A stretch of DNA of 64,000 nt from a phage. Every line of letters starts with the position of its first letter. Within the stretch, counting starts at the first letter, position 1. Positions 7,409-35,972 of the stretch are shown one piece after another. A model generated the notes under the pieces. The model worked only from the letters and a program-made list of their open reading frames with translations, was not told where the DNA came from and did not search any database. Location of the stretch: the sequence record PZ386970.1. One strand, written 5' to 3'. Both the position numbers and the translations under genes were made by a program.

Positions 7409-7420
7409 GTTTTTCTCTCA

Positions 7421-7621
7421 TCACAAGTTACGTTTAAAAATTTCTGCTACTTCAAGAAGTTCTTCTTTAGTAGCTGTGTCGGTTTGTATTTTATATCGAA
7501 TTTCCTTAAAGCGTTCTTTAAAGGCTTCAGCTGATTCGATATCAAAAAATCTTTGGATAAGCCGGAATTCCCGGAGCACTGCTTTATCAAAAAGTTCCAA
7601 GTCCACGTTATATGTTCTCAT
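7421..7621 (-). CDS. hypothetical protein (66 aa), rIIA.1 position
   Basis: ATG ORF MRTYNVDL... with RBS; synteny. Confidence 0.5.
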   Translation of the reverse strand: MRTYNVDLELFDKAVLREFRLIQRFFDIESAEAFKERFKEIRYKIQTDTATKEELLEVAEIFKRNL

Positions 7622-7645
7622 AATATTCTCTTCAGTAGATTCCTA

Positions 7646-7698
7646 GGGCACTATTACTAAAGACCATATAATCTATCATCTTATGTGTAATAGTGCCT
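7646..7698 (-). other. perfect 11-bp inverted repeat (GGCACTATTAC / GTAATAGTGCC) with 29-nt AT-rich loop
   Basis: seen directly in sequence, between the glycosyltransferase stop and the next start codon. Confidence 0.6.
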
Positions 7699-7713
7699 CA
7701 GGCGATTCAGGAT

Positions 7714-8814: not shown

Positions 8815-8821
8815 AATTAAG

Positions 8822-8857
8822 CCTTATTAAAATTAAAATGAAGCTCCCGAAGGAGCT
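8822..8857 (-). terminator. UUCG-tetraloop hairpin (AGCUCC-UUCG-GGAGCU) plus U-rich tail, overlapping the HNH gene stop
   Basis: stem-loop followed by UCAUUUUAAUUUU on minus strand. Confidence 0.45.
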
Positions 8858-9654
8858 TAGGACATCCAACACATTTTATAACCTTTGCAGGTTCTGTTAG
8901 GATTATTTAATGCTTTCAATATATTAGAAGACCCTATACCTAAATACTCCCTTAATTCATAAAGATAGTTAAAATCAATAGTTTCACCTGTTTTTACACT
9001 TGTGATTCTTATAGGCCTTCTTTCATATTTAGATTTATACAACTCTCTAGTCTTAGCTTTAGTTTCTTCTGACCTAGGAGTGTATGGTTTAAATCCTTTT
9101 GTTTTAAATGTTTCCATTCTTGATTTAGTTATTTTATCCTGGTGTTCTTTTGTTTTTACAGGTGCTTTTCGCCCATTCTCCCAAGATAACTTGTTGGCCT
9201 GTATTATTTTATCTATTGCTTCTTGCGTATGAGTTTTACCATAAAATGGATTTAATTCGCCTATACGTTGTGAAGCAATATGTGACATTAATTCTCTTGT
9301 TGCTTTAGTATGTTTTTTACCTTTAAATGGGTTGCCATTTTTAGCAATCCATTCTTTCATAAATCTAGAGTGCTCTTTAGAGAATTCTTGTTTAAGCCAA
9401 TCATAATCTCTAGAATTTCTAGCTCCCATGTAAAAAGCTCTAATAGCCATAAGCGTAGAACGGTTCTTATGAATTTTATAAAGCAATAAATGGGCGATAA
9501 AATGCTCTCTAGGGGTCATTTTAACTAGATTTGATTTAGCATTACTCCCGCCCATAGATTTAGGCAAAATATGGTGAGTTTCAGTATAATTAGGAATAGT
9601 GCTGCGGTTTTTAGCCGCAGCGATAAGTTTATCATAAATTTTACGATAATTCAT
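8857..9654 (-). CDS. HNH homing endonuclease with NUMOD-like repeats (free-standing, Mob-like)
   Basis: HHILPKSMGGSNAKSNLVKMTPREHFIAH HNH motif; repeated NPFYGKxHT motifs; ATG overlaps gene 39 stop (TAATG); track start is an upstream TTG. Confidence 0.75.
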   Translation of the reverse strand: MNYRKIYDKLIAAAKNRSTIPNYTETHHILPKSMGGSNAKSNLVKMTPREHFIAHLLLYKIHKNRSTLMAIRAFYMGARNSRDYDWLKQEFSKEHSRFMKEWIAKNGNPFKGKKHTKATRELMSHIASQRIGELNPFYGKTHTQEAIDKIIQANKLSWENGRKAPVKTKEHQDKITKSRMETFKTKGFKPYTPRSEETKAKTRELYKSKYERRPIRITSVKTGETIDFNYLYELREYLGIGSSNILKALNNPNRTCKGYKMCWMS

Positions 9655-11474: not shown

Positions 11475-11496
11475 GTTGTCTCCTCGTTATGAAGGT

Positions 11497-11523
11497 ATTC
11501 TATCATCCGAAATCTAAAGCAAA
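11497..11523 (-). promoter_or_regulatory. MotA-type middle promoter upstream of gene 39 (TTGCTTTA box, 12 nt, TAGAAT)
   Basis: minus strand tttTTGCTTTAgatttcggatgaTAGAAT; MotA box consensus (a/t)(a/t)TGCTT(t/c)A. Confidence 0.45.
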
Positions 11524-11538
11524 AAGGGCCGAAGCCCT
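11519..11538 (-). terminator. UUCG-tetraloop hairpin (AGGGC-UUCG-GCCCU) plus U5
   Basis: stem-loop followed by UUUUUG directly after the stop of the upstream gene. Confidence 0.5.
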
Positions 11539-11963
11539 TATTTAAATTTAATTTTCTGAAGTGCATCAATTGCAGCCAAACGCCCTTGTTCACTTTTAAC
11601 TGTAATGACCACATCGCCGGATACGATCACCGAACCATCAACAAATTCTATAGAGCCTTTTTTGAAATCGACAGCTGTATCTGGTTCCGGAACTTCTTCA
11701 AAGAATTTAAATTCTGCACCATAAAGCAGAATATCACCTTGCATACTATGAATAGTTCGGCCATAATCGCCTACGGCTTCTACAGCAATAACCGAAACGC
11801 CGTAACCAATCATCTCTTCCACAATAAAATCTTTGGACAATAAAGTAGTATGCAGATTAGTATTAAGACGTTTACCAGTTGTATTAAGAATTCTCAAGAA
11901 ATTATCTTCTTGACCTTTGATAATACGATATTTCTTACCAACTTCAAAACCTTTAAAAGCCAT
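11538..11963 (-). CDS. hypothetical protein (141 aa)
   Basis: ATG ORF MAFKGFEV...; no family recognised. Confidence 0.5.
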   Translation of the reverse strand: MAFKGFEVGKKYRIIKGQEDNFLRILNTTGKRLNTNLHTTLLSKDFIVEEMIGYGVSVIAVEAVGDYGRTIHSMQGDILLYGAEFKFFEEVPEPDTAVDFKKGSIEFVDGSVIVSGDVVITVKSEQGRLAAIDALQKIKFK

Positions 11964-11965
11964 AA

Positions 11966-12145
11966 TTAACCCTTCTTAAGTAAGTCGTAAAAACCGCCGT
12001 TCACATGTTTAGGAGCAGAAACCCGACGAGTAGACAGACGATGACATTCAGGGCAAACATCATTTTCTCGTTCAGAAATCCTTTTAATTTTTTCATATTC
12101 ATGACCACAATCTTCAGATTGACATTTATAGTCGTATAACGGCAT
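11966..12145 (-). CDS. zinc-ribbon protein (59 aa), FmdB-like
   Basis: manual translation [18 protein letters not shown]...CPECH; two CxxC pairs; TAATG-coupled to upstream gene. Confidence 0.45.
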   Translation of the reverse strand: MPLYDYKCQSEDCGHEYEKIKRISERENDVCPECHRLSTRRVSAPKHVNGGFYDLLKKG

Positions 12146-12558
12146 TATTGTTCCTTAAAGTGAGCTTTCAACATTTGATACAAAGACCATGCCTGGTCGT
12201 TATTTTCGATAGTAATCGTCATCACCGGAAATTCAGACAATTCGTCAAGTTCACTAGAATCTTGCTCTTCGGGCGCTTGATATGGATTTCCAACTTCGTC
12301 AAAGAACTCTGCTTCATTCGTGGAGAGCCAGATAAAGTTTTCATCAAGAATATCACCACCTGTTGCGTATCCAACCATGCCAGTAGATGTCACAATTTTA
12401 GTAGGTCGTCCAAGATGGTCAACATCTAATACTTTAAATGGTTCCATGCCAAGACGTCGTGCATAAATCCCATTATCAGTGTGGTCTTTAATAAACTCTT
12501 CTTGGGCACGTTTATCTTTAAATTGGTACCATGAGTTAACACGGAATTTATTAGCCAT
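12145..12558 (-). CDS. hypothetical acidic protein (137 aa from MANKF)
   Basis: internal ATG chosen because it couples (TAATG) to the upstream stop. Confidence 0.45.
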
Positions 12559-12785
12559 TAGTAAGTTTCCTTCCAATAAGTTGTACCGTTTTCAGTGATT
12601 TCACGGAAGATACCATAGATAGGCATTTCATCACCAAGTTTTTCGTAAACGTAAACCACTTCAGTGTAGCATAAAAATTCGGTCCAGTTTTTCTGTACAA
12701 CAACTAAATCAGGATTAAACAAAACATCTTCAAACTCATCGATGTTTGAATCAGTAGTTACGTTTTTAATGATTTGACGTTTCAT
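12558..12785 (-). CDS. hypothetical protein (75 aa from MKRQIIKNV)
   Basis: track N-terminus MVYDTIDLSKQEEN is a translation of the promoter repeat; true start follows GAGGAG RBS. Confidence 0.45.
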
Positions 12786-12799
12786 AATATTCTCCTCTT

Positions 12800-12843
12800 G
12801 TTTTGATAGGTCTATAGTATCATAGACCATAGTTGTTGTACAT
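12800..12843 (-). promoter_or_regulatory. early-type promoter (family A, -35 variant TGTACA)
   Basis: TACTAT -10 followed by AGACCTATCAAAACAAGAGGAG. Confidence 0.5.
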
Positions 12844-13367
12844 CATTTTAGCAAAATAAAATCAACTTGTTCTGCCAATGAACGTCTAAACATTAATTGA
12901 CAACTTCCGAGTATGAAATCAGGTGCTTCATAGACCGCGATGTAGTATCCTTTAGCTTTCAAGAGTTCAACATCCACTTGGTCATCAAACCATGCATAAA
13001 CCGCGTCAACACTTTCAAATCCAAAATAGAACCCTTGAGCCCAATCTTCGCTCAATTCAAATGTGTGCTCAATTCTATAGTATCTTAAGATATTTTGTTC
13101 AAGGAGTTTGTCTTCATTTACTGTAGGACGATTAGGGACGTTATAGTTGTCGCCGTGATGGTAGAAGTTACCTGAGAGTATTCCATGCTTATCAAGGAAC
13201 TCCCATGTTTCTTCAGAGTTGTCGGTGCCCGACCAACCGTATGGTGAGCGAGGTTCTTTATTCCAAGAGGTTTCCCAAATTCTGACGGCTTTGCCGTCTT
13301 CGATAGCAATTCCTGGTAATGATTCACGTTGAGTACAAAAACTACGTTCTACGCGGTAAACTAACAT
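12843..13367 (-). CDS. hypothetical protein (174 aa from MLVYRVE)
   Basis: start placed downstream of promoter 13388-13425 after GAGGAG RBS. Confidence 0.5.
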   Translation of the reverse strand: MLVYRVERSFCTQRESLPGIAIEDGKAVRIWETSWNKEPRSPYGWSGTDNSEETWEFLDKHGILSGNFYHHGDNYNVPNRPTVNEDKLLEQNILRYYRIEHTFELSEDWAQGFYFGFESVDAVYAWFDDQVDVELLKAKGYYIAVYEAPDFILGSCQLMFRRSLAEQVDFILLK

Positions 13368-13387
13368 ATTATTCTCCTCTGGTTGAT

Positions 13388-13425
13388 ATGGCTCTATAAT
13401 ATCAAATCCAGAGGAGAAGTAAACA
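13388..13425 (-). promoter_or_regulatory. early-type promoter (family A)
   Basis: GTTTAC, spacer, TATTAT then AGAGCCATATCAAC. Confidence 0.45.
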
Positions 13426-13428
13426 ACT

Positions 13429-13848
13429 TTATGCAAAAGATGCTGGACAATATTTTTTGATTCGGAACTCAGGAACTACCATGAACTGCCCGGCAAAAAC
13501 AATGTTGTAAAGCTTGACACCATCTTCAACCCATTGGTCGCTAATAAATCCGGCAATTTGCTTAGTTTTCCATGGTGTTCCATCAGTTGCAGCAGAAATA
13601 GTAAATTCATGGTCTTTTACAACTAAAACAGACCTGCACAGTTTCCATTTGAATGCTTTTTCTTCTGGTTCAATGAACCGGCTTTTAACGTAACCAATGT
13701 TACCATCAGCGTCACGAACTTTAACTTCGTTACGTCCAAAAACCGGATCACTTACATAAAGGACTTCAACCAACTTCCCAGCAACTTTAGAGCGAGAAGC
13801 ATCTGATACGTGTACATAATCACCAATAGAGAGATTTGCAATATTCAT
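13429..13848 (-). CDS. hypothetical protein, member 1 of a tandem three-gene paralogous family
   Basis: shares SDASRSKxAGxLVEV and GFISDQWVEDGxKLYNIVF motifs with the two genes upstream. Confidence 0.5.
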   Translation of the reverse strand: MNIANLSIGDYVHVSDASRSKVAGKLVEVLYVSDPVFGRNEVKVRDADGNIGYVKSRFIEPEEKAFKWKLCRSVLVVKDHEFTISAATDGTPWKTKQIAGFISDQWVEDGVKLYNIVFAGQFMVVPEFRIKKYCPASFA

Positions 13849-13857
13849 AATAATTCC

Positions 13858-14313
13858 TTAAGCTTTACGAGGAGATACATAGCGAGTGATTTCAGATTCT
13901 TTAACAACTCGGAAGTCACCTAAGAATACGATATTGTATAACTTTTCACCATCTTCAACCCATTGGTCACTAATGAAGCCACACATAGTATCAGTTTTGC
14001 TTGGATAACCGTATTCATCGATGAAGTCAAATTCTTTATCAGTCTGGAATTCAACACCTTTACACAAGACCCATTTGAACTGTACATTAGGTTCAGTAGA
14101 AGCAAAATGAGCGCTCACATGAGTTTCCAAGAATTTAGGACTTACGTAAGCGTACTGAGTTTCAGTTTTTCCAGAACTAGGAATGATTCGAACTTTAACT
14201 TCTTTAACACGACCAGTACCATTAGTACGAAGTCCTACCACTTCAACTAGACGACCTGCAGCTTTAGAACGAGATGCAGACGATACACGCTTAATTTCAC
14301 CAATAGTAATCAT
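13858..14313 (-). CDS. hypothetical protein, paralogue 2 (from MITIGEIKRV)
   Basis: paralogue motifs; start trimmed to lie downstream of promoter 14335-14372. Confidence 0.5.
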   Translation of the reverse strand: MITIGEIKRVSSASRSKAAGRLVEVVGLRTNGTGRVKEVKVRIIPSSGKTETQYAYVSPKFLETHVSAHFASTEPNVQFKWVLCKGVEFQTDKEFDFIDEYGYPSKTDTMCGFISDQWVEDGEKLYNIVFLGDFRVVKESEITRYVSPRKA

Positions 14314-14334
14314 AATTTCTCTCTCTTTGTTTAA

Positions 14335-14372
14335 ATTGAATTCACTATACTCCATCCATCCTTGGATGTACA
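14335..14372 (-). promoter_or_regulatory. early-type promoter (family B variant, palindromic spacer)
   Basis: TTGTACA, spacer GGATGGATGGAG, TATAGT. Confidence 0.45.
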
Positions 14373-14375
14373 ACA

Positions 14376-14870
14376 TTAATTTAGAATATTAACCACAGCA
14401 CTACGTGGAACTACACTAAAATCACCTGCATGAACAACGTTCAGAAGTTCAACACCGTCTTCAATCCACTGATCAGTTACCCATCCACTCACTGGTCCTG
14501 CGAACGGACGACGAATTGAAACAGCTTTACACAACAAATCAGTAGGCTCAATAGGCTTAATCAGAGTACCGTACATACAAGCGATATCCATATCAAAGTG
14601 GAGACCATCTTTAACAGGTGCTTCTTCAATCAACAGTTCAAAGTCGGTGCTTGGAAGGGCGGTAGTAGAAATTGTACCGTATGAATTTTTAATTTCTAAG
14701 AATAACCAAGGGCCTTCAGCTTGTTTGATGAAGTTAACAATAGTGAAACTATTACCTTGAGTGGCACCTAAAATTTCACAAAACTTTTCATAAGCTCGCA
14801 CTGAAGCACCGTACCAGTTGATTTGTTTTTCGTCTTTCAGGATGTAAGTAGCCGTAGTATTGATATTCAT
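14376..14870 (-). CDS. hypothetical protein, paralogue 3 (from MNINTTATY)
   Basis: C-terminal GWVTDQWIEDGVELLNVVHAGDF matches paralogue motif; start trimmed downstream of promoter. Confidence 0.5.
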   Translation of the reverse strand: MNINTTATYILKDEKQINWYGASVRAYEKFCEILGATQGNSFTIVNFIKQAEGPWLFLEIKNSYGTISTTALPSTDFELLIEEAPVKDGLHFDMDIACMYGTLIKPIEPTDLLCKAVSIRRPFAGPVSGWVTDQWIEDGVELLNVVHAGDFSVVPRSAVVNILN

Positions 14871-14894
14871 AATGGTTTCCCGTTTGGTTAAGAT

Positions 14895-14930
14895 AGAAAG
14901 ATTATACTCCAACCATCCTTGGTTGTAAAC
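14895..14930 (-). promoter_or_regulatory. early-type promoter (family B): GTTTACAACCAAGGATGGTTGGAGTATAAT
   Basis: near-identical copy at 57820-57857; related copy upstream of gene 43. Confidence 0.55.
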
Positions 14931-14935
14931 TGTTT

Positions 14936-15613
14936 TTATCGCTGTTTTACACTTAACGGGTCAGGATTCTCAGGGACATCTTCAAGGCCAAGCGCATAAC
15001 GCTGAGCATATTTTAACATCAAAATATCTTTAGCACAATCATGAATACTATCATGGGCAACGAATCCTTTTAGCGTACCCATCGGTAATGGACACATACT
15101 TAATCCTCGTGTCAACGAGTAAGCTTCGATTGCTGTACGAATATCACGTTGAGCCCAGAATTTAACCGGTTCTAATTTATCAGTATCAATATCTGGTTCA
15201 AGAACACCTTCATCACGATAGAGGTCACGAATCAAATCGACCAAGATTGGGAAGTCAAAGCTCATACCACGGCACCACATCTGTGATTTCCATTGGTCAA
15301 CTTTATTAGCTCGGCAATAGTCTAAAAAGATTTTAATGCCTTCAAGCGTAGTGACATCGTCTTCAGACGGGGCCAAGTTTTTACGTGCTTCAGCCGATTG
15401 TTCTTTCCACCATTTCATAGTGGATTTAGCGAAAACTCGCTTCCCTTTCTGAGAAGCTAAATTAAATTTAATTCGTTTACCTCGTTGAACAAGTTCTTCA
15501 AATGATTCAACAACTTCAGGGTCGGAATTATATGCAATAACCGCAAGGTCAATAACAGCCGCTTTTGATGTATTGCCGAATGTTTCAAAATCTATAATAA
15601 CATCAGTGCTCAT
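14936..15613 (-). CDS. dexA: exonuclease A (DnaQ-like 3'-5' exonuclease), DexA
   Basis: 225 aa, N-terminus MSTDVIIDFETFGN...AAVIDLAVIAY with DxE motif; position next to dda. Confidence 0.75.
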   Translation of the reverse strand: MSTDVIIDFETFGNTSKAAVIDLAVIAYNSDPEVVESFEELVQRGKRIKFNLASQKGKRVFAKSTMKWWKEQSAEARKNLAPSEDDVTTLEGIKIFLDYCRANKVDQWKSQMWCRGMSFDFPILVDLIRDLYRDEGVLEPDIDTDKLEPVKFWAQRDIRTAIEAYSLTRGLSMCPLPMGTLKGFVAHDSIHDCAKDILMLKYAQRYALGLEDVPENPDPLSVKQR

Positions 15614-18071: not shown

Positions 18072-18146
18072 CTCTTTTTTCATAAAATGCTTTAATTTTT
18101 TATGTGTTATAATGGTTCTGAGTTCCATCCGGTTATTCCAATTCAG

Positions 18147-18755
18147 TCAGTAACTGACAATAGACAGATTCCAGATTGTATAACGTCCATTTTGAATAAT
18201 AGAATCTACACGCAGTGTAGTCCCTATAGGGAGCATAAATTCACATTCGTCAGATATAAGTCTAGCATTAGACCGTCTTGTCGCTTCAGGGAAAGCTCCA
18301 TTGAACTCACAAGATGGCGCAGCCAGAATCATGTTAAGCATATGTTCACGGAAGTTGAAAGCAAATGGTGCATCTTTGATGCAGAACATATTAAATGTTC
18401 CATAAAAATTATACGAAGCAAAGTTACGTGCTACACTGAACACTGGGCTGAAGCTCATTACTCTGTCAAATTTAATAATACTACCAATGCCTTTATCATC
18501 GAGTGTGGCCATAGTTTTCTTAGAGATTCCACGATACATTGTCTCAGGAACAGAAGACGTCCAATTTCTACGAACAATTGAACTTAAATCTTGTTGGATG
18601 CTATCAGGCTTGTTTTCCATACACTGCCACAGTACACTTTGTTCAATGTCGCTGAATTGACTATCAATTTCATACTGCAATTCATCTTGATATTCAGGGT
18701 TTTGAGCACGACGAACCATTTCTTCAATTTCACACTCGTTATACGGCATAAACAT
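18147..18755 (-). CDS. modA: ADP-ribosyltransferase, ModA-like
   Basis: R-S-E triad context: MYRGIS, SFSPVFSVARNF (STS-like), ECEFML; paralogue of next gene; synteny. Confidence 0.6.
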   Translation of the reverse strand: MFMPYNECEIEEMVRRAQNPEYQDELQYEIDSQFSDIEQSVLWQCMENKPDSIQQDLSSIVRRNWTSSVPETMYRGISKKTMATLDDKGIGSIIKFDRVMSFSPVFSVARNFASYNFYGTFNMFCIKDAPFAFNFREHMLNMILAAPSCEFNGAFPEATRRSNARLISDECEFMLPIGTTLRVDSIIQNGRYTIWNLSIVSY

Positions 18756-21259: not shown

Positions 21260-21781
21260 TTAGTAACCATTATCCTGACGTTCAAAGTTGTGTTGGTTTT
21301 TCAGATAATACAGTTTGAAGATTTCTTCAGCAGAAAGTCCTAGACCTTGGAACATATTTAGAACGAAATGCAGAATATCAATCATTTCGAATTTAATTTC
21401 AAGCTGGTCTTCAGGAGACAGTTCATCGATACGACGATTACGATATTCAGCATGCTGTGCCTTCCACGGCTTCCATACACTGCTGGCGGCTTTTTCACCA
21501 TTGCTCATACCACCAAGTGAAGTCAGCAGTTCACGGAATTCATCATCAATATAATCTTTCTGATTACGCAGCCAATCAACAACATCACCAGCAGTAGCCA
21601 ATTCATCAGGATGTTTGTTATGTTCAGGCTTGTCATTTGCCAGACGAACCTGTAAAGATTTCTGCATATCAAGCATTACCTGCAGTGGGTCTTTATCTTC
21701 GTGAATCAGAGCATTAAAATAAGCTTCTTCTGCTTTATCAACACCAGAAATAAGTTGTGAACATTCGTTAAAGTGTGCCAT
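21260..21781 (-). CDS. 56: dCTP pyrophosphatase (MazG-like), gp56
   Basis: MAHFNECSQLISGVDKA... matches T4 gp56; track start is an upstream TTG. Confidence 0.85.
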   Translation of the reverse strand: MAHFNECSQLISGVDKAEEAYFNALIHEDKDPLQVMLDMQKSLQVRLANDKPEHNKHPDELATAGDVVDWLRNQKDYIDDEFRELLTSLGGMSNGEKAASSVWKPWKAQHAEYRNRRIDELSPEDQLEIKFEMIDILHFVLNMFQGLGLSAEEIFKLYYLKNQHNFERQDNGY

Positions 21782-21870
21782 TATTTTTCCTTTCAATTCA
21801 GTATAAGAGAGTTAATTCTAACATTAATTTTATAAAGCGTAATAAATAATAAGGTAACTAAGGAGATATT

Positions 21871-29402: not shown

Positions 29403-29432
29403 TTTAAAACTTTAAATGGCTCTTAACGAGCC
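29400..29432 (-). terminator. hairpin (GGCUC-GUUAA-GAGCC) with U-rich tail 3' of kinase gene
   Basis: short stem, AU-rich downstream. Confidence 0.3.
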
Positions 29433-29971
29433 CATTTAATGATTTCTGTAATCAAATAATTACGTTCGCTTGCATTAAATCCTATAACTTTGTTAGCACC
29501 ATCATGATTAAGTAATTGATACGTTTGGATTTTGTTATGAATTGCAAACTCTTCAAAATATGAAATGACTGTATTAAAACCGAATGAAGACAAAGTAATA
29601 AGGTCGTCTTCAAAACTTTCAGTCATTTCGTTACGTGTTAAAATAATTGTGAACACATCATGGTTTTGGCAAAGACGAACATAATCCTGTTCATAAACGT
29701 CAAGAACCGAGTCCACATCTTGTCGAATACGTCCATAAACCCAGTTACTAATATATCCACGGTCTAACAGATAAATCTTAGTAGGGTCTAAATAATTCAA
29801 CATCGTTTCGAAACAACCAACTTCATTTCGAGACTTAACATCGAAACGCCCATCAACTGTTCGTTTAGGGAAATCAATCTTTACATATCTTTCACTAATT
29901 TCCATTATGTCATTAATGAAAGTTGTTTTACCAGCATTATCTGGGCCGTCTACTAAAATAATTTTAGCCAT
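29423..29971 (-). CDS. P-loop nucleotide kinase, thymidylate kinase-like
   Basis: Walker A ILVDGPDNAGKTT; downstream DRGY motif resembling the Tmk DRx motif; 182 aa. Confidence 0.55.
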   Translation of the reverse strand: MAKIILVDGPDNAGKTTFINDIMEISERYVKIDFPKRTVDGRFDVKSRNEVGCFETMLNYLDPTKIYLLDRGYISNWVYGRIRQDVDSVLDVYEQDYVRLCQNHDVFTIILTRNEMTESFEDDLITLSSFGFNTVISYFEEFAIHNKIQTYQLLNHDGANKVIGFNASERNYLITEIIKWAR

Positions 29972-29972
29972 T

Positions 29973-30872
29973 TTATTCCTCGATTACGACATCTTCGTAT
30001 TTAGGTATATTATACGGTGAAGAAATTAAAGCATTAAAGTAGATGAACTCACCAAGACCTGGATGGAATACTTCTTCAGGATTTTCGAAATATTGAATTT
30101 TCGGACGTCCTTTAAGAATTTGATAGTACTCAGTTTTAGTTGGATTAAAAATTCGAATCAGCGCTTCTTCAGGATACTTATTTCTGTCGAAACTATTATT
30201 TGGATCAGTTATATAAAGCGGTTGACCTAATTGAATTGCGCATTCAACAACTTGTTCAAAACGATAGCATGGGTCACTAATTCGAAATGGATGAAAAATA
30301 CCATCTAGATGAATAGGAGCCAAATCACCTACAAGACGCTGCATGATGGAAGGACGTATAACTTTCTGAGTTACGATAATCTTATTACCATCTGCACCTG
30401 CGTTAACCAGCACTTCTTTTTGACGTTCATTCAACACAGTAGTTTGAAGTGAACGATTAACTGACAACATATCGGTTTTTAAGAATTCGTCAATATAAAA
30501 ACGTGGTTTATTAGGGTCTGCCGTGATATTGAAATTGAATTCTACATCAAAAGCGCCGTCATATCCAGTGATATCTGTTATTAGAAAATCACAATCATAA
30601 TAAGCAATTAATGAATCAACCACAAATTCATTTTCAGACCAGAAATATTTACGAGTGTTATACGCGTTATCTTTATACCATAATGGAACAAACTTAAATT
30701 CCGGGAAAAGACGTTCACATTCTTTAATATCAGATGCATTACGTGGATATGTAATCACATCACCCGGATTAGCACGGTGCAAATGAAGTTGGAAGTTGCC
30801 ATCCTTAAGGATAGCATACTGTCCAGTTTCATAAGACCGCATACTCAAGATTGGTACGCGGAAAATAGCCAT
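29973..30872 (-). CDS. hypothetical protein (299 aa), cluster member of unknown function
   Basis: TAATG-coupled to the hydroxymethylase-like gene; no family recognised. Confidence 0.5.
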   Translation of the reverse strand: MAIFRVPILSMRSYETGQYAILKDGNFQLHLHRANPGDVITYPRNASDIKECERLFPEFKFVPLWYKDNAYNTRKYFWSENEFVVDSLIAYYDCDFLITDITGYDGAFDVEFNFNITADPNKPRFYIDEFLKTDMLSVNRSLQTTVLNERQKEVLVNAGADGNKIIVTQKVIRPSIMQRLVGDLAPIHLDGIFHPFRISDPCYRFEQVVECAIQLGQPLYITDPNNSFDRNKYPEEALIRIFNPTKTEYYQILKGRPKIQYFENPEEVFHPGLGEFIYFNALISSPYNIPKYEDVVIEE

Positions 30873-31588
30873 TAGTCAAGGAATCCTTTAACATAATCAA
30901 AATCACGTTCAAACACATGGGCACTTACCATGGTATGAGTATAATCACCAACTTCTACACCACATTCGTTAGCGATATAATGAAGTAATTTTCCTTGGAG
31001 ATAAAAATCCAACTGCATAACAACAGCACAATTCTGAGAACGCATATGACAGTGGGTATAAAGCTTACCATCACGAATATAATAAGTCACTGAGTCAGTA
31101 CATGGATATTCAAGCGTTTCGTCCGAATCAAGCAAAGCCTGATCAGAACTTTCTAGAATTTGGAACACAACTCTTCGGGAGTTAGGCTTCTCTTTAAGTT
31201 CTTTTAGAAGAGCTGGTAATTGGGCCGCAATTCGAGGACCATAGAAAGTGTTGAAGTTCGCAGGCAAAGCATCTGATTTTGGTTTAGAAATAAATTTAGC
31301 GACATTAGGATATGCCTTAAACGCTTCTTCTGCATCAGTACCACCAGAAATCATAAACTTCCAGAAATCTTCGGCATATTCATAAGAGATGCGGTTAATA
31401 CGTGGGTCGGTCATTTTGAATGATGATGGAGTGTCAACAACTACTGTCATGGACCCAATTTCATTACAACGTCCAATACGAGAATCAGTTACGAATTCCG
31501 GGTTTTCTAAAATTTCACGATTGACTGCTTTAAATGCGGCTTGAAAATCTGCTGCTTTGATATATTTCATTGTGTTATGTTTTCCCAT
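30872..31588 (-). CDS. 42: thymidylate synthase-family pyrimidine hydroxymethylase, gp42-like (dCMP hydroxymethylase), divergent
   Basis: KPNSRRVVFQI and PCTDSVTYYIRDGKL align with T4 gp42 NPDSRRGIMIY and MCTNTVQYLIRDKKI (catalytic Cys); 238 aa. Confidence 0.7.
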   Translation of the reverse strand: MGKHNTMKYIKAADFQAAFKAVNREILENPEFVTDSRIGRCNEIGSMTVVVDTPSSFKMTDPRINRISYEYAEDFWKFMISGGTDAEEAFKAYPNVAKFISKPKSDALPANFNTFYGPRIAAQLPALLKELKEKPNSRRVVFQILESSDQALLDSDETLEYPCTDSVTYYIRDGKLYTHCHMRSQNCAVVMQLDFYLQGKLLHYIANECGVEVGDYTHTMVSAHVFERDFDYVKGFLD

Positions 31589-31607: not shown

Positions 31608-31633
31608 ATTATATACTCAATTCGTAAAGCTTA
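31608..31633 (-). promoter_or_regulatory. putative middle-type promoter (GCTTTAC box, 11 nt, TATAAT)
   Basis: upstream of the hydroxymethylase-like gene. Confidence 0.3.
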
Positions 31634-31870
31634 TTTGAATTTCTTGGCAATGTTGATATAACGTAAAGCTTCAGAATCTATACTTCCAAGAACACTATGA
31701 AGGAATGCATCAGTGTAGTATTCCAATTGAACAGGTTCTTTAATCACTTTAGCCGCTTTGGTTTCAAACAGGCCCATCAGGGCCTTTTTAAGAATTTGTT
31801 CGTTAGTGTTCAGTTTTATAGTCAAAATCTCTTCATTAAGTTTATAATTAAAAGTTTTTCTAGAAATCAT
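31631..31870 (-). CDS. hypothetical protein (79 aa)
   Basis: ORF only. Confidence 0.4.
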   Translation of the reverse strand: MISRKTFNYKLNEEILTIKLNTNEQILKKALMGLFETKAAKVIKEPVQLEYYTDAFLHSVLGSIDSEALRYINIAKKFK

Positions 31871-33027
31871 TCCGGGTACCTCAAAGCGTCATCAGAGTTA
31901 GTTATATCAATAATAGATATAGAGTTTTCTGCTAACCCGTTTTTAGATAATTGACGTTTATAATACCTTTCACAATATGTACACGTTGACCCACAGATTT
32001 CATTAGCACAATCAAAATCCGGATGTCTGAACCACCTTTTTTCTAAAAAGCCATCTAACAAAGAGGTTTCAATATTTACTGTATGTGAAAACTCAGTCTC
32101 ATTTTCAAGAGTGAAAATAGTCTCTAAAGGCTTCCACAGTTCTAACAAATTACCTTCAAACTTTTCAGAAGCGTATGCTTCAAGAACTTTCAAAATGTAG
32201 TCTGTGCTACCTGTACGTCCTGAAACTTTGAATTGAGTGATACCAATATCATTATAAAGTTTCAAATCTTGTGGACGAACAAAACGAGTTCTCAACCAGT
32301 TAAACGGGTCTGTATCACGAGCTTTAATACAGTGCTGCATAGGATATCCATTTAAGGATTTAGCATCATCAGCTGTAACATCAGTACTATGGAAAATATA
32401 GCAAGAGTCACGATAGCTACAATGTGTTGTATACCCTTTACCAGCATTAGAACAGAACTCATTTACAAGAACTTCAAATATTATATTGTTTTTATTGCAA
32501 AACTCTGCTGCACGCTTCAGGAAAGAAACTGAACGGTTCTTATGAATTCCACAGCAGACCTTTTTGATATTATACTGGTCATGTAAGTATTTGATTTGAG
32601 TTACAGCATCGACATGTAGAATTGTTGAAACTTCAATCTCAATGTCTTTATTGACTTCACGAACAATTTCCATAACAACAGGGTTAGCGATAGTAATACG
32701 CCATACGCCTATTGACCAAAGATACTGAACATAATCCTGAATAGCTTTCTTCTTCCACTCAACTAGTTCTCTTTTTGAACCAGGATTTATCGTGTTGAGT
32801 GTATAGTTAAAGCAAATACCTAATTCGTTACAACGTTTAACATAATCTTCTAACATCTTTTTGTCAACGTCAGGAAGCCTAAAATCAGGTCTGGCTGCTA
32901 CAAAAGCCATTTCTCTTGTAGAGCCGTATACTTCGTTTATCAAGCTATTAGGATAAGTTTTATTGAGCTCTACGATTTTATCAAGAAGAGCTAAATCAAA
33001 ATTCGTTCCGATTTTAAAAGTATTCAT
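31867..33027 (-). CDS. Cys-rich putative metalloenzyme, weak resemblance to peptidase-U32-family Fe-S proteins
   Basis: 386 aa; EVLVNEFCSNAGKGYTTHCSY resembles the U32 signature; additional C-terminal CxxxxCxxxCxxC; N-terminal pattern similar to U32 barrel. Confidence 0.35.
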   Translation of the reverse strand: MNTFKIGTNFDLALLDKIVELNKTYPNSLINEVYGSTREMAFVAARPDFRLPDVDKKMLEDYVKRCNELGICFNYTLNTINPGSKRELVEWKKKAIQDYVQYLWSIGVWRITIANPVVMEIVREVNKDIEIEVSTILHVDAVTQIKYLHDQYNIKKVCCGIHKNRSVSFLKRAAEFCNKNNIIFEVLVNEFCSNAGKGYTTHCSYRDSCYIFHSTDVTADDAKSLNGYPMQHCIKARDTDPFNWLRTRFVRPQDLKLYNDIGITQFKVSGRTGSTDYILKVLEAYASEKFEGNLLELWKPLETIFTLENETEFSHTVNIETSLLDGFLEKRWFRHPDFDCANEICGSTCTYCERYYKRQLSKNGLAENSISIIDITNSDDALRYPE

Positions 33028-33083: not shown

Positions 33084-33452
33084 TTATAGATTCGGTTTAT
33101 ATGATTTAAATGTTTCGAATTCGCCTTTATTCATAAGAGCTTTGAATTCGTCAGGACGCATAGCTTTGTCGTCGATAATCCAATCATATACTGGTTTATG
33201 TGTTAGCAAATTATGGTACTTCAAACCAATGTTTTCCAAGTTCTGAATCAGACTTGGGAGAATGTCAATTGCTATACGACCAGGACCTACTGACTTCATA
33301 CCACGAGCAGTGTAAAGCGTTATGGTATGCCCTGCATCATACAGGGCATTAATGGCAGACACCATTTCGACGTCTGGTTTGAAGTTCACGTAATCACGAT
33401 TGTTATTCCACTCTGTTATACAATCATCGACATCAAAACAAAGATTAAGCAT
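33084..33452 (-). CDS. small HAD-like phosphatase (122 aa from MLNLCFDVDD)
   Basis: FDVDDCIT (motif I-like), TARG, DWIIDDK (motif IV-like); resembles KdsC-type phosphatases; motif I imperfect. Confidence 0.35.
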   Translation of the reverse strand: MLNLCFDVDDCITEWNNNRDYVNFKPDVEMVSAINALYDAGHTITLYTARGMKSVGPGRIAIDILPSLIQNLENIGLKYHNLLTHKPVYDWIIDDKAMRPDEFKALMNKGEFETFKSYKPNL

Positions 33453-33469
33453 GTTTTCTACACGGTGCA

Positions 33470-35155
33470 TTAGATTCGTTCCCATTGATGAGTGATATCG
33501 CCACCGATTGGACGATAGGAAACACCAGTTTCTTTATCAGTTAGTACCCATTTACCAGGATTTTTTGTAATCAGAGTAGCCGTTACAGGTTCTGCTACGT
33601 CATAACTAATAGAGCCGTCCTGAAGTACACGGCCCATGTTACGTAATTGCTTAGTCAGAAGTTCCATGCCTTTATAATATGCGGCTACCGCTTTAAGTGG
33701 ATTATTCTTGAAATAACCACCCAATGCAATCCAGATAATTGCCACCGCCAAATGATGATACTCGTTAAACGAACTCATCTTTCCATATTTGTAAACTAAT
33801 GGATTGATGTTAATAGTCACATTACAAGTTGTTTCATCAATAGTAAACTGACCCCAGGTCGGATTAGCATTGAATTCATCATAACCTGAAACAGCATAAA
33901 GCACTTTAGCTTCATCATATAATTTTGGCCCGTAAATCTTGGTTTCACCAAAATATCCACGAGGGTCGATAAACTTGACTTCGCCGTTATCAGTAATCAT
34001 AGTATTACTGAAGTTCGGGTCACCGTGAATAACAGAGTACTGTCCCTGAGAACGGTTATGATAACGAATAAGATGTTCTAAAGCTTGTTTCAACATTGGC
34101 TTCAGACGTCCAATCTTAGTGTAGTTCACGTGTGTGATTTTACCAAATGAATCAATCAATGGCTGAATGCTTTCACAACGATCAATAACTTTCGTATAGA
34201 ACTCTTTAGTGAAATCACGGCGAACAGTTTCAGGACTTACAAAATAAGTGTCTGTGCTGAATTTCAGTGCATCTAAAATTGCATCAACAATTTGTGGACG
34301 AGCAAGACTTGATTTGGATTTAATATATTCAAATGCCGGCTTACCTTTAATGCGTTCCATTTCAAAGTTATTTTCATTAACAGAAACTAACTGAGGAACT
34401 GAATCTGATTTCACTTTCAAATACCACGAAATCTCATCTTTCTGAAGAGCTCGACCCTGTTCGGTTAATGCGAATTTAGTTACAGTTTCTTCACCAATTT
34501 CAACTGCATTAAAACTACGATTAAGTTCACGAACTTCATGAGCTTTTTCAAGTTTAGGCATATCACCTAAATCAATTATATTCATAAGCTCTGATTTATT
34601 GAATGCGCCGCTGTAAAGGAATTCTACGAAATCACGTCCTTTGCAGTATTCATGAATTTCCTCATCGGTAGAACCCATATAGAATTCCCAGTCTTTGAAT
34701 TGATAAATTCCTACAACATTACCGCCTGTTGCACCTACATTAGTGATATTTTCACCGTCGAAATTATATCGACATTCATCACCCTTAACATAGATTGCGT
34801 TAACATTCCAAGACCATGAACCAAAATCAGGAATAATATCGCACCAGTTAACAATTACGTTATGGCCGTCTAAATCTTTGTGTAATTTAGCAAGAGCATA
34901 AGCAGAACCATACGCTTCATCAACTGTACGAATAGTCACATTGAACCCTTCTTGCTCACAATAAGCTCGAACAGTTTCAGCAAATTTTGAATGAACTACT
35001 ACAATAATTTCATCTGCGCCAAGGTCAGAATAAATTGTATATAAATTGCTCAGAATAGTGTCTTGTTTATAGTTAACAAGCACCTTAGGAATATGATGCG
35101 TTATTGGATACAAACGAGTTGCCAGTCCGGCACCAAGAATAACAGCTTTTTTCAT
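33470..35155 (-). CDS. bifunctional sugar-1-phosphate nucleotidyltransferase (N-terminal) / APH-like sugar kinase (C-terminal)
   Basis: N-terminus MKKAVILGAGLATRLYPIT (GxGTRL NTP-transferase motif); C-terminus VIHGDPNFSNTMI...FIDPRG (Brenner HGDxxxxN and DxE/D kinase motifs); 561 aa. Confidence 0.65.
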   Translation of the reverse strand: MKKAVILGAGLATRLYPITHHIPKVLVNYKQDTILSNLYTIYSDLGADEIIVVVHSKFAETVRAYCEQEGFNVTIRTVDEAYGSAYALAKLHKDLDGHNVIVNWCDIIPDFGSWSWNVNAIYVKGDECRYNFDGENITNVGATGGNVVGIYQFKDWEFYMGSTDEEIHEYCKGRDFVEFLYSGAFNKSELMNIIDLGDMPKLEKAHEVRELNRSFNAVEIGEETVTKFALTEQGRALQKDEISWYLKVKSDSVPQLVSVNENNFEMERIKGKPAFEYIKSKSSLARPQIVDAILDALKFSTDTYFVSPETVRRDFTKEFYTKVIDRCESIQPLIDSFGKITHVNYTKIGRLKPMLKQALEHLIRYHNRSQGQYSVIHGDPNFSNTMITDNGEVKFIDPRGYFGETKIYGPKLYDEAKVLYAVSGYDEFNANPTWGQFTIDETTCNVTININPLVYKYGKMSSFNEYHHLAVAIIWIALGGYFKNNPLKAVAAYYKGMELLTKQLRNMGRVLQDGSISYDVAEPVTATLITKNPGKWVLTDKETGVSYRPIGGDITHQWERI

Positions 35156-35183
35156 GTTGTGGTCCTCATTGGTAAGTAGGTGT

Positions 35184-35208
35184 ATTGTACACTATTCTAG
35201 TTAAAGCA
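35184..35208 (-). promoter_or_regulatory. MotA-type middle promoter (TGCTTTA, 12 nt, TACAAT) upstream of the nucleotidyltransferase-kinase gene
   Basis: exact MotA box core with canonical spacing to a TAnnnT -10. Confidence 0.45.
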
Positions 35209-35340
35209 TTCATACTTTGCCTGTAGACCAATCATAATCCATCCAATTACAAGTGTTGGAATCATTACTGGAGCCGTTAAGCTCCAGTAGATAGTCATGA
35301 CAAGCATCAATAGTAAAAGTCCTATTGTTATTGCTTTCAT
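35197..35340 (-). CDS. small membrane protein (47 aa)
   Basis: manual translation MKAITIGLLLLMLVMTIYWSL...; TAATG-coupled to SIS gene stop. Confidence 0.3.
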   Translation of the reverse strand: MKAITIGLLLLMLVMTIYWSLTAPVMIPTLVIGWIMIGLQAKYECFN

Positions 35341-35972
35341 TATTCGCCTCGTAACATGGCACCTAGTGCACCGCCAGGGTGGAACTTAAGGAAGTCATTA
35401 GAGGTAAATCCACGTTCAGAAGAAAGGTTGATAGCAAACGTATCGATAAGCGCTAACAACAATGTAGTGGACATTGTCGGAGCTAAAGAGTTCTCATCGA
35501 CCTCTACCGCGATGCCTGTACAGAAAGAGTAATCAAAAAGGGCTTCATTTTCTTGCGGAATGTCAGGGTTACAATGTAACAGAATCTGTTTAACCTGAGG
35601 ACGAATCATACGAAGATGTTTAGCAACACCTATCATTTCTTCGGTCTTACCAGAACGACTAATATGAATCAACACATCATTAGGCGCAATGAATCCTGCA
35701 TCACCGTGAGAATAATGCCCGGTGTTCAAGTACATACTAGGAATACCTAGTGAAGCAAATGTCTCAGAAGCTTTAGTTGCAATATTAGCATTCTTACCAA
35801 CACCTGTAATAATTACTCGGCTTTCATAATTACTAAGTCCTGGGCGTCGAAGAGTTTCTAGAATAGCATTATAACGAGCAGGGTTTTGACTAATTACTTT
35901 GGCCATAGTAGCCAAAGAAGAAGCTTGTTTTATGATTGCGTCAATAGCGATAGTGATTGGTGTAGTTTTCAT
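35340..35972 (-). CDS. SIS-domain sugar-phosphate isomerase, KdsD/GutQ-like (arabinose-5-phosphate isomerase-like), no CBS domains
   Basis: VIITGVGKNANIATKASETFASLGIPS...HISRSGKTEE and FLKFHPGGALG match the KdsD SIS domain; 210 aa. Confidence 0.7.
   Translation of the reverse strand: MKTTPITIAIDAIIKQASSLATMAKVISQNPARYNAILETLRRPGLSNYESRVIITGVGKNANIATKASETFASLGIPSMYLNTGHYSHGDAGFIAPNDVLIHISRSGKTEEMIGVAKHLRMIRPQVKQILLHCNPDIPQENEALFDYSFCTGIAVEVDENSLAPTMSTTLLLALIDTFAINLSSERGFTSNDFLKFHPGGALGAMLRGE

Follow-up and report, generated by a model that had tools for sequence, protein, structure and literature searches.

The window analyzed here, a 64,000-nucleotide stretch of phage DNA (record PZ386970.1), encodes a thymidylate synthase (TS)-family enzyme at the gene 42 position of the T4 map, and the question raised by this locus is which reaction the enzyme catalyzes. 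The initial annotation regarded it as a gp42-like hydroxymethylase that is unusually divergent from T4 gp42. The gene (30872..31588, minus strand) is an intact ORF of 238 amino acids with an ATG start, and is the only TS-superfamily gene detectable in the 64 kb window. Its product matches Pfam PF00303 (Thymidylat_synt) with 56.9 bits (cutoff 24.3); the match is limited to residues 122–235 (profile positions 110–220 of 266) and leaves the N-terminal half of the protein outside. PHROG 160, which is named 'thymidylate synthase', is matched at 1e-46. GenBank labels for the protein vary among 'thymidylate synthase', 'dCMP hydroxymethylase' and 'hypothetical'.

As a baseline for the divergence, the window was searched by tblastn with 22 proteins encoded in the corresponding T4 segment, 20 of which were found. 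gp42 is the lowest of these 20, with 24.8% identity, whereas the 19 others range from 32 to 86% (gp41 86, gp46 83, gp45 79, regA 79, gp44 78, gp62 74, UvsX 68 and gp43 62%). The initial annotation was thus right that core replication proteins (43, 44, 45, 62 and regA) are close to T4 and that the enzyme at the gene 42 position is exceptional among them. In BLASTP, T4 gp42 aligns with the window protein over 218 residues with 25% identity and 52.4 bits, and the alignment confirms the short blocks noted as common to the two: PNSRR/PDSRR, the catalytic C-T and Y(Y/L)IRD.

The searches revealed no kinship to gp42 above the background of the superfamily. E. coli ThyA scores 57.4 bits in BLASTP versus 52.4 for T4 gp42, with 30% identity in the C-terminal 115 residues, and phmmer gives 50.6 bits for Xp15, 41.8 for E. 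coli ThyA and 29.4 for T4 gp42. gp42 is absent from the best 60 matches of a PDB search with the window protein, and when gp42 itself serves as query, the chain of PDB entry 9iqc, a near-identical relative of the window protein, is ranked under 12 other TS sequences. Alignment to T4 gp42 and to TS, which had been proposed as a check, thus fails to give the identity of an ordinary gp42 orthologue. None of the NCBIfam TS models reaches its cutoff with the protein; the best, TIGR03283, attains 68.4 bits versus a cutoff of 174.55, and the remaining models attain 17–50 bits versus cutoffs of 108–427. A weak NCBIfam match of the window protein to NimABCDEF (17 bits) was discarded as noise. Because the score to gp42 is no closer than that to E. 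coli ThyA, we assign the protein, on sequence comparison, to a separate branch of the TS superfamily and not to a drifted gp42 orthologue.

A nearly identical protein is encoded by phage RB69 (Mosigvirus). Between positions 24000 and 44000, the window and RB69 share 97.4% identity across all 20 kb, and 237 of the 238 residues of the window protein (99.6%) are those of RB69 gp48 (ORF048c); the sole substitution, A17T, lies outside the signature positions described below. The two genes also agree in length, in the four signature residues and in gene neighborhood. Three PDB entries (9iqc, 9ir2 and 9iqu), in which the molecule is named 'Thymidylate synthase', are ~99% identical to the window protein, and the three substitutions with respect to the PDB sequence (A17S, E30Q and E87K) are all away from signature positions. 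A literature search with the code 9IQC found nothing; we take the three entries to be, probably, the HY126 homologue structures of He et al. (Nat Chem Biol, 2026), who reportedly solved the crystal structure of a gp48 homologue. The same authors are said to have reconstituted full activity in vitro with only a generic flavin reductase.

The chemistry of RB69 gp48 is established. The enzyme is a 5-hydroxy-dCMP synthase, with a product that was matched by LC-MS to an authentic standard (Lee et al., NAR 2026, PMC13326640). Purified gp48 carries FMN, the oxygen of the product originates from O2, as determined by 18O2 incorporation, and gp48 together with the phage dNMP kinase suffices in E. coli for 5-hydroxy-dC to enter DNA (PMC13326640). 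gp80 of Acinetobacter phage DLP3 is also a characterized 5-hydroxy-dCMP synthase, and a flavin is reported in the structure solved for the homologue from phage HY126 (PMC13326640). In Mosigvirus DNA, arabinose is joined directly to C5 of cytosine (PMC13390438). Because of its near-identity to RB69 gp48, the window protein is predicted to have the same dCMP 5-hydroxylase function, and we identify it, with a probability of about 0.93, as a 5-hydroxy-2'-deoxycytidylate synthase, a dCMP C5 hydroxylase of TS fold. No sequence feature counting against this assignment was found. The divergence had been thought to reflect an altered substrate or product; the gp48 data bear this out for the product, 5-hydroxy-dCMP, and not for the substrate, since dCMP is common to gp42 and the gp48 type, which differ in product and cofactor. 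The label 'hydroxymethylase' has to be abandoned, because gp48 makes 5-hydroxy-dCMP rather than 5-hydroxymethyl-dCMP, and because the signature residues and the arabinose context are present.

The identity and chemistry of gp48-type enzymes are already published and nothing is new in the TS-like enzyme itself; likewise, the turning of a folate enzyme scaffold to flavin/O2 chemistry is a striking case whose discovery has been reported. The value of the present result is corrective, as many GenBank records and PDB entries misname the protein. Read as a divergent gp42, it predicts the wrong DNA chemistry, that is, arabinosyl-hydroxymethyl-C rather than arabinosyl-5-hydroxy-C, and it is the true chemistry that decides whether the phage evades or sets off a given restriction, CRISPR or type IV system.

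The published signature of 5-hydroxy-dCMP synthases comprises D169N, N177D and L143E, where Asn177 selects uracil and its replacement by Asp switches the preference to dCMP (PMC13326640). Alignments show that the four signature residues are present in the window protein as Cys163, Glu160, Asn186 and Asp194. Asn186, within the sequence MRSQN, occupies the position of ThyA Asp169, which is Asn in all six 5hoC-type sequences aligned and stays Asp in T4 gp42, Xp15, ThyA and the TS of locus L038. The complete D169N/N177D/L143E set is common to five homologues (WG01, Kosakonia 305, Serratia 4S, Ac42 and Rhizobium RHph_I9), and absent from T4 gp42, Xp15 and E. coli ThyA. Residues C163, R138, R139, R183 and S184 fall in invariant columns that correspond to the catalytic ThyA C146 and the phosphate-binding Arg126, Arg127, Arg166 and Ser167, and Tyr116 of the TS nucleotide-binding and covalent-catalysis set is also kept. 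Glu73 is likely the equivalent of ThyA Glu58; MAFFT places the E-x-x-W element (E73...W76 in the query versus E58...W61 in ThyA) two columns out of register.

The folate pocket is altered. In TS structures, Asp169, Gly173 and Trp80 hold the pterin of the folate. These residues are replaced in the window protein by Asn186, Val190 and Ala, respectively, whereas T4 gp42 has Asp, Gly and Trp at the three positions; the pocket is not of the gp42 type.

The genes surrounding the hydroxylase, all on the minus strand, correspond to a pathway for arabinosylation of DNA. Immediately downstream, the base-proximal DNA arabinosyltransferase 1 (29973..30872; RB69 gp46:47, PMC13326640 Table 1) is one intact ORF of 299 amino acids whose start overlaps the hydroxylase stop by 1 nt. 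It has no Pfam match and belongs to PHROG 3891, of unknown function; its homologues adjoin the TS-like gene in Ac42, Rhizobium phage RHph_I9, WG01, 4S and Kosakonia 305. The next gene (29423..29971; RB69 gp45) encodes a thymidylate-kinase-like P-loop nucleotide kinase, a possible member of the pathway, as indicated by PHROG 761 (7.9e-45), a weak NCBIfam dTMP kinase match and Table 1 of PMC13326640. On the other side, beyond a small ORF and a U32-family gene that are discussed below, three genes correspond to the formation of the sugar donor. A HAD-type sugar phosphatase (33084..33485; RB69 gp51, analogous to HY126 AfhF, PMC13326640) matches TIGR01689 capsule biosynthesis phosphatase at 1.9e-13. 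The bifunctional sugar kinase/sugar-1-phosphate nucleotidyltransferase for UDP-arabinofuranose (33470..35155; RB69 gp52:53, analogous to HY126 AfhE, PMC13326640) is a single intact ORF of 561 amino acids with Pfam NTP_transferase, weak kinase-family and NCBIfam nucleotidyltransferase matches. The arabinose-5-phosphate isomerase (35340..35972; RB69 gp55) is a KpsF/GutQ/KdsD-like SIS protein (TIGR00393 kpsF 4.7e-32, KdsD 1.3e-30, Pfam SIS).

Two further genes are located at a distance, also on the minus strand. The product of 7714..8814 (PHROG 8302, unknown function) is probably a second DNA arabinosyltransferase at the RB69 gp3 position; it lies between genes assigned by PHROG to rIIA (5195..7408) and the topoisomerase II large subunit (9654..11474), a position that agrees with PMC13390438 and with Table 1 of PMC13326640. 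A gp56-type dCTP pyrophosphatase (21260..21796; Pfam dUTPase_2 and, at 1.8e-45, PHROG 173, a nucleoside triphosphate pyrophosphohydrolase) provides dCMP while clearing the pool of dCTP, and in T4-like loci its homologues again lie ~9–10 kb away from the cluster. The hydroxylase gene is thus accompanied in the window by a dCTPase (21260..21796), DNA glycosyltransferases (29973..30872 and 7714..8814) and an NDP-sugar pathway (33084..35972). The proposal that the divergence is tied to a different downstream modification chemistry holds, with 5-hydroxy-dC as the modified base and the arabinose pathway arranged around the gene.

A plausible catalytic route can be outlined on this basis. Addition of Cys163 to C6 of dCMP would activate C5 for attack on a flavin C4a-hydroperoxide made from reduced FMN and O2, and loss of the C5 proton with elimination of Cys163 would release 5-hydroxy-dCMP. 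In the anticipated pathway, the dCTPase would feed dCMP to the enzyme, the phage dNMP kinase and the host NDP kinase would raise the product to the triphosphate, and gp43 would incorporate it into DNA. The 5-OH group would then be arabinosylated on DNA by the products of 29973..30872 and 7714..8814, with UDP-arabinofuranose made by the genes in 33084..35972 as the donor.

Other assignments of the TS-like gene were weighed against the same data. A fast-evolving but true orthologue of T4 gp42 would be folate-dependent and would form 5-hydroxymethyl-dCMP that is later arabinosylated, in keeping with the 2018 view of RB69, in whose DNA Thomas et al. (2018) reportedly found arabinosyl-hmC. T4 gp42 (PDB 1b49, 1b5d and 1b5e) does resemble the window protein in its TS fold, dCMP substrate and Cys nucleophile, in having the cytosine-selecting Asp where ThyA has N177 and an acidic side chain where ThyA has L143, and in mapping between gene 43 and uvsX, and some GenBank records say 'dCMP hydroxymethylase'. 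However, the folate-pocket residues kept in gp42 are those replaced in the window protein, the YG-W-x-x-W segment of gp42 is deleted, and the similarity to gp42 is no greater than that to a bacterial ThyA in a segment where the other 19 proteins retain 32–86% identity. The reactions also differ: gp42 uses methylene-tetrahydrofolate to form a 5-CH2OH product, whereas the gp48 type uses flavin and O2 to form a 5-OH product, the RB69 enzyme having been found to bind FMN and to yield 5-hydroxy-dC with O2-derived oxygen (PMC13326640). The 2018 hmC assignment is called erroneous in later work (PMC13390438), and we consider orthology to gp42 very improbable. A second alternative is an enzyme that modifies dUMP, whether thymidylate synthase or another; the Pfam, PHROG and NCBIfam matches and the PDB molecule name all say 'thymidylate synthase', and E. 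coli ThyA has in common with the window protein the fold, the phosphate-binding Arg/Ser and the equivalents of Cys146 and Tyr94. By contrast, ThyA is specific for uracil, while the window protein, with Asp194 in place of the uracil-selecting Asn177, is of the cytosine type; it also lacks the folate-pocket Asp and, at the C-terminus, the ~45 residues with which ThyA covers the folate. With all NCBIfam TS models far under their cutoffs and 5-hydroxy-dC as the published product (PMC13326640), the probability of a dUMP-modifying enzyme is negligible. MilA, a CMP 5-hydroxymethylase (PDB 5jnh and 5b6d), gives a near full-length match among the non-identical PDB chains (residues 14–237, 47 bits) and is likewise a TS homologue specific for a cytosine nucleotide, but it acts on a ribonucleotide by folate-dependent hydroxymethylation and comprises 325–342 amino acids.

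The enzyme could also be a 5-hydroxy-dCMP synthase that relies on a different partner or substrate, such as the U32/Fe-S protein for the reduction of the flavin, or other pyrimidine nucleotides. The tight linkage of the U32-like gene to the TS-like gene, observed in 15 of the 15 T4-like loci retrieved via the U32 gene, would agree with such an arrangement. Against it, gp48 and the dNMP kinase alone are enough in E. coli (PMC13326640), and the TS-like enzyme is found without the U32 gene in Acinetobacter, Rhizobium, Dhakavirus, Serratia 4S and Kosakonia 305 phages; a different partner or substrate is highly unlikely. Because the U32 gene is present without a nearby TS-like enzyme in 32 other viral loci, its product is itself unlikely to serve the TS-like enzyme by reducing the flavin or donating electrons. 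A 5-hydroxy-dCMP synthase that acts on dCMP with flavin and O2 is, hence, the assignment retained for 30872..31588.

The U32-family gene (31867..33027, minus strand; RB69 gp50) may represent a new part of the system. Its product is labeled in the literature examined only as 'sugar or heterocycle reductase'. Pfam PF01136 matches gp50 with 42.2 bits against a cutoff of 22.4 (7.3e-11), and hhalign aligns it to a profile of RlhA, TrhP, UbiU and UbiV with 88.9% probability, pairing E185, C203 and C209 of gp50 with E161, C169 and C176 of RlhA. The Glu and the two Cys are essential in RlhA (E161, C169 and C176) and TrhP (E162, C170 and C177) (PMC6599085). Across 121 sequences, C203 and C209 never vary, and at least 95% retain E185. 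Ten Cys are kept in at least 98% of these sequences, nine of them invariantly; those outside the E/C/C motif are C158, C177, C192 and C233 and a C-terminal C340-x4-C345-x3-C349-x2-C352. The AF2 model of gp50 (pLDDT 87.5) has the U32 structure 5d88 as its top PDB match. BLASTP of gp50 against RlhA was not significant and a PDB sequence search with gp50 returned noise only; the kinship to U32 hydroxylases rests on Pfam, profile comparison and the fold search.

RlhA and TrhP, which have the same U32 domain with the essential E...C...C motif, catalyze the prephenate-dependent, O2-independent C5 hydroxylation of cytidine or uridine in RNA, with RlhA forming 5-hydroxycytidine in rRNA, and C5 hydroxylation is the very step performed by the TS-like enzyme. 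In contrast to RlhA, TrhP, UbiU and UbiV, gp50 contains a 10-residue insert inside the motif and the extra C-terminal four-Cys motif, and its gene belongs to a phage and is linked to genes for DNA glycosylation.

The U32 gene occurs in 32 unrelated, non-T4 viral loci alongside the same glycosyltransferase and sugar genes. Its companions there are homologues of arabinosyltransferase 1 (16–20 loci), genes of the arabinose pathway, a Tmk-like kinase and a MazG-like pyrophosphatase. In 0 of these 32 loci was a TS homologue of the 5hoC type found within 10 kb. The only TS gene near a distant U32 gene, that of L038, has the canonical ThyA signature (L/D/N), which rules it out as a gp48-type hydroxylase. 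A role of gp50 in the sugar pathway is weakened by the presence of the U32 gene with a galactofuranose-type cluster (Glf and a TAGT-like GT; L020) and in dCMP-deaminase/kinase/polymerase clusters without sugar genes (L014 and L019). Cultured phages with the U32 gene are only those of facultative anaerobes, and the gene is absent from the Acinetobacter and Rhizobium phages with the TS-like enzyme. The converse, that all TS-like-positive phages of facultative anaerobes carry U32, is false; because Dhakavirus WG01, Serratia 4S and Kosakonia phage 305 are without it, the U32 gene is accessory and its correlation with host lifestyle is one-way only.

These observations point tentatively, at somewhat less than even odds, to gp50 as a second, O2-independent pyrimidine C5 hydroxylase. 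Mosigviruses would then carry an aerobic/anaerobic 5-hydroxycytosine pair, and in many uncultured phages DNA glycosylation would depend on the U32 protein as its sole hydroxylase. An Fe-S cluster, prephenate dependence, hydroxylase activity and O2 independence are predicted for gp50 from its family and gene context only. The proposed gp48/gp50 pair would be comparable to TrhO/TrhP, UbiI-H-F/UbiU-V and the NrdAB/NrdDG of T4-like phages. For a phage of the gut, dependence of the hydroxylase on O2 is a handicap, and an anaerobic U32 hydroxylase, if true, would explain full DNA modification without oxygen in gut phages, add DNA precursors to the RNA and quinone substrates of U32 hydroxylation, and flag a large set of uncultured phages for glycosylated 5-hydroxypyrimidines. 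A literature search found no paper joining U32 with arabinosyl, RB69 or 5hoC; prior art is possible.

Between the hydroxylase and U32 genes lies, on the same strand, a 79-amino-acid ORF (31631..31870; RB69 gp49; PHROG 8601, unknown function) whose start shares 4 nt with the stop of the U32-like gene, and homologues of which were detected by phmmer in 5 of the 15 T4-like loci.

The open reading frame at 30872..31588 (minus strand) is intact, with exact coordinates, an ATG start and 238 codons, and is part of a minus-strand gene run in which its stop overlaps the start of the gene at 29973..30872 by 1 base. The encoded protein matches the Pfam profile Thymidylat_synt (PF00303) with 56.9 bits (cutoff 24.3), with the alignment confined to residues 122–235, equivalent to profile positions 110–220 of 266. 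None of the NCBIfam thymidylate synthase (TS) equivalogs came near its cutoff (best 68 bits vs 174), and no second TS-superfamily gene was detected in the 64-kb window.

The initial annotation had described this protein as a hydroxymethylase unusually divergent from T4 gp42, the dCMP hydroxymethylase, and the divergence is borne out. A BLASTP alignment with gp42 (from NC_000866) spans 218 columns, of which 25% are identical, and scores 52.4 bits, compared with 57.4 bits for Escherichia coli TS (ThyA); the blocks in common with gp42 are those named in the initial annotation, P(N/D)SRR, IRD and the C-T of the catalytic site. As a baseline, all 22 T4 proteins of the segment 61.2 to 46.2 were searched against the window with tblastn. 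Among the 20 that were located, gp42 is the lowest (24.8% identity), and the remaining 19 range from 32% to 86% (gp41 86, gp46 83, gp45 79, RegA 79, gp44 78, gp62 74, UvsX 68 and gp43 62%). On the common scale of phmmer, the protein scores 50.6 bits to its homologue in Xanthomonas phage Xp15, 41.8 to ThyA and 29.4 to gp42. When all PDB sequences were searched, the gp42 entries (1b49/1b5d/1b5e) fell outside the best 60 matches and, with gp42 as the query, the chain 9iqc, near-identical to our protein, ranked below 12 other TS sequences. These sequence comparisons show no specific relationship of the protein to gp42; it is a separate branch of the TS superfamily that occupies the gene 42 map position, and not a drifted gp42 orthologue.

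The nearest annotated relatives of the window are Mosigvirus phages, and a 20-kb stretch that includes the gene aligns end to end with phage RB69 at 97.4% identity. The protein is identical to RB69 ORF048c (gp48) at 237 of 238 residues, originally annotated as "hypothetical, similar to dCMP hydroxymethylase, td" and not as gene 42, and is ~99% identical to three PDB chains (9iqc, 9ir2 and 9iqu), all named "Thymidylate synthase". Of 50,697 phage records searched with tblastn, 457 matched, 343 of them at ≥60% identity; the latter, from organism counts and the matches listed, belong to T4-like phages whose hosts are Escherichia, Shigella, Klebsiella, Serratia, Kosakonia, Providencia and Acinetobacter, and Rhizobium phages match at ~30%. 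Near-identical copies are variously labelled 'hypothetical protein', 'thymidylate synthase', 'putative thymidylate synthase', 'dCMP hydroxymethylase' and 'deoxycytidylate 5-hydroxymethyltransferase', and none of the matches listed is annotated with the function that experiments support.

The explanation of this enzyme is already published. The DNA of RB69 and Acinetobacter phage DLP3 contains arabinose ether-bonded directly to cytosine C5 (Lee et al., NAR 2026, PMC13326640), and expression of RB69 gp48 or DLP3 gp80 with the cognate dNMP kinase yields 5-hydroxy-dC in E. coli DNA, a 243-Da product that matches the authentic standard and derives its oxygen from 18O2; both purified proteins are yellow and release FMN (PMC13326640). 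As cited in PMC13326640, He et al. (Nat Chem Biol 2026) solved the crystal structure of the homologue from phage HY126, which contains a flavin, and are likewise credited there with in vitro reconstitution; the 9iqc-series PDB entries presumably represent that structure. A second group calls the arabinosyl-hydroxymethyl-C assignment of RB69 erroneous, and states that Mosigvirus DNA contains 5-arabinosyl-dC and its diarabinosyl form (PMC13390438). The suggestion that product and downstream chemistry differ from those of T4 thus stands, and the hydroxymethylase label gives way to hydroxylase.

The diagnostic of Lee et al., in ThyA numbering, comprises N177D (cytosine substrate), L143D/E and D169N, the last being unique to hydroxylases; nine of nine diverse D169N homologues yielded 5-hydroxy-dC (PMC13326640). 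We aligned the protein with five homologues (Dhakavirus WG01, Kosakonia phage 305, Serratia phage 4S, Acinetobacter phage Ac42 and Rhizobium phage RHph_I9) and three references (T4 gp42, Xp15 and ThyA). The protein and all five homologues carry Asp194 at ThyA N177 and Glu160 at L143 (Asp at both in gp42 and Xp15), Asn186 at D169 (Asp in all three references), and Cys163 at C146 (Cys throughout). Further changes found in the hydroxylase clade only, and additional to the published signature, are Gly173 to Val, Trp80 to Ala and the deletion of a YG-W-x-x-W segment; Arg138/139/183, Ser184, Tyr116 and His224 are invariant. In TS structures, Asp169, Gly173 and Trp80 line the pterin site. Since these are replaced and the nucleotide and catalytic residues are invariant, the half of the enzyme for nucleotide binding and covalent catalysis is conserved in the alignment, and the cofactor half is rebuilt. 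In the literature, the reaction converts dCMP and O2 to 5-hydroxy-dCMP on a flavin-bearing TS fold. Cys163 would add to C6 of dCMP, the activated C5 would attack a flavin C4a-hydroperoxide, and C5 deprotonation with elimination of Cys163 would release 5-hydroxy-dCMP.

Following the assignments in Table 1 of PMC13326640, the genes that form its context in the window are a gp56-type dCTP pyrophosphatase (21260..21796), a Tmk-like kinase (29423..29971), arabinosyltransferase 1 (GT1; 29973..30872, minus), a HAD phosphatase (33084..33485), a bifunctional kinase/uridylyltransferase (33470..35155, minus), an arabinose-5-phosphate isomerase (35340..35972) and a probable second arabinosyltransferase (7714..8814) between rIIA and topoisomerase II. 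GT1 (299 aa) and the bifunctional enzyme (561 aa) are single intact ORFs, which the RB69 reference splits into ORF046c/047c and ORF052c/053c, in keeping with the published view that these splits are sequencing errors. A 159-aa ORF at 18102..18581 (plus) is unlikely to be a gene: it overlaps the minus-strand ORF 18147..18755, and all other long ORFs of that region are minus-strand.

Two genes upstream of the hydroxylase lies a U32-family gene (RB69 gp50; 31867..33027, minus; 386 aa; Pfam Peptidase_U32, 7.3e-11). In Lee et al., gp50 appears solely as a table entry, "sugar or heterocycle reductase", with no mention of U32, RlhA or TrhP (PMC13326640). Characterised U32 proteins are oxygen-independent hydroxylases: RlhA forms 5-hydroxycytidine in 23S rRNA, and TrhP, prephenate-dependent and O2-independent, forms 5-hydroxyuridine in tRNA, and both require a Glu and two Cys residues in the U32 motif (PMC6599085). 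gp50 keeps this motif, E185/C203/C209 corresponding to RlhA E161/C169/C176 in a profile comparison (88.9% probability). In an alignment of 121 members of the family, the most distant at 46% identity, C203 and C209 do not vary and at least 95% have E185; C158, C177, C192 and C233 are also conserved, and the C-terminal motif C340-x4-C345-x3-C349-x2-C352 is invariant. The best PDB match to the AlphaFold model (pLDDT 87.5) is 5d88, a U32 structure. The intervening 79-aa ORF (gp49; 31631..31870, minus; PHROG 8601) has no Cys and shares 4 nt with the end of the U32-like gene, at its stop; as phmmer detects homologues in only 5 of 15 T4-like loci with the U32 gene, gp49 is not an obligate partner.

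Among cultured phages, 222 records carry the U32 gene, with ≥80% identity in every case, and the genera among the matches listed are all Enterobacterales plus Shewanella, with no Acinetobacter or Rhizobium phage. By contrast, the TS-like enzyme is found in 64 Acinetobacter and 22 Rhizobium phage records, and its gene is present but the U32 gene absent in Dhakavirus WG01, Serratia 4S and Kosakonia 305, so that the host correlation of the latter is one-way only. We further collected 32 loci from non-T4 viral contigs (7 by exact-protein look-up, 25 from an IMG/VR scan) with U32 homologues at 40–56% identity; a PolIII-alpha polymerase gene is present on many of the contigs. Within 10 kb either side of the U32 gene are homologues of GT1 (16 of 32 loci by phmmer, 20 by clustering), which often overlap the U32 start, Tmk-like kinase and gp52:53-like bifunctional enzyme (11 each), HAD phosphatase (10), SIS isomerase (9), MazG-like pyrophosphatase (~7) and dCMP deaminase (5). 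A D169N-type TS homologue is present within this distance in none of the 32, and the sole TS gene found close to a distant U32 homologue carries the signature residues of canonical ThyA; in the T4-like loci of the same scan, the TS-like, GT1 and U32 genes occur together in 15 of 15.

The TS-like and U32 genes thus each occur without the other in otherwise similar modules, a pattern expected of analogous enzymes. On this pattern we tentatively propose, with a probability of about 0.4, that U32 proteins of the gp50 type hydroxylate pyrimidines at C5 independently of O2; gp50 may instead have a role in the sugar pathway. If the hydroxylase proposal is true, gp50 may provide an oxygen-independent route to 5-hydroxypyrimidine, two genes from an O2-dependent dCMP hydroxylase.

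In several loci of uncultured phages, a DAHP/KDO8P-synthase-family gene (PF00793) adjoins the U32 homologue (10145..10891 in locus L018, with six related loci, e.g. 7290..8354 in L050). U32 hydroxylases need prephenate, a product of the shikimate pathway, so this gene could serve cofactor supply; equally, it could encode a sugar-pathway (KDO-like) enzyme. In locus L020 (Logan SRR33454321 contig, 6777..15179), the genes flanking the U32 homologue encode UDP-galactopyranose mutase, a GT1 homologue, a TAGT-like glycosyltransferase, and Gly_transf_sug and dUTPase/DCD-like proteins. This set resembles the galactofuranosyl-5-hydroxycytosine system of Rhizobium phage RL38J1, but has U32 where RL38J1 has a TS-like hydroxylase. 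The contig of locus L015 carries two U32-family genes (8001..9098 and 13227..14360), 48% and 22% identical to gp50, among NT5C, deoxynucleoside kinase, nucleoside deoxyribosyltransferase-like and radical SAM/SPASM genes; given a nearby GH43 gene with a dockerin, the host or prophage may be that of a strict anaerobe among the Firmicutes.
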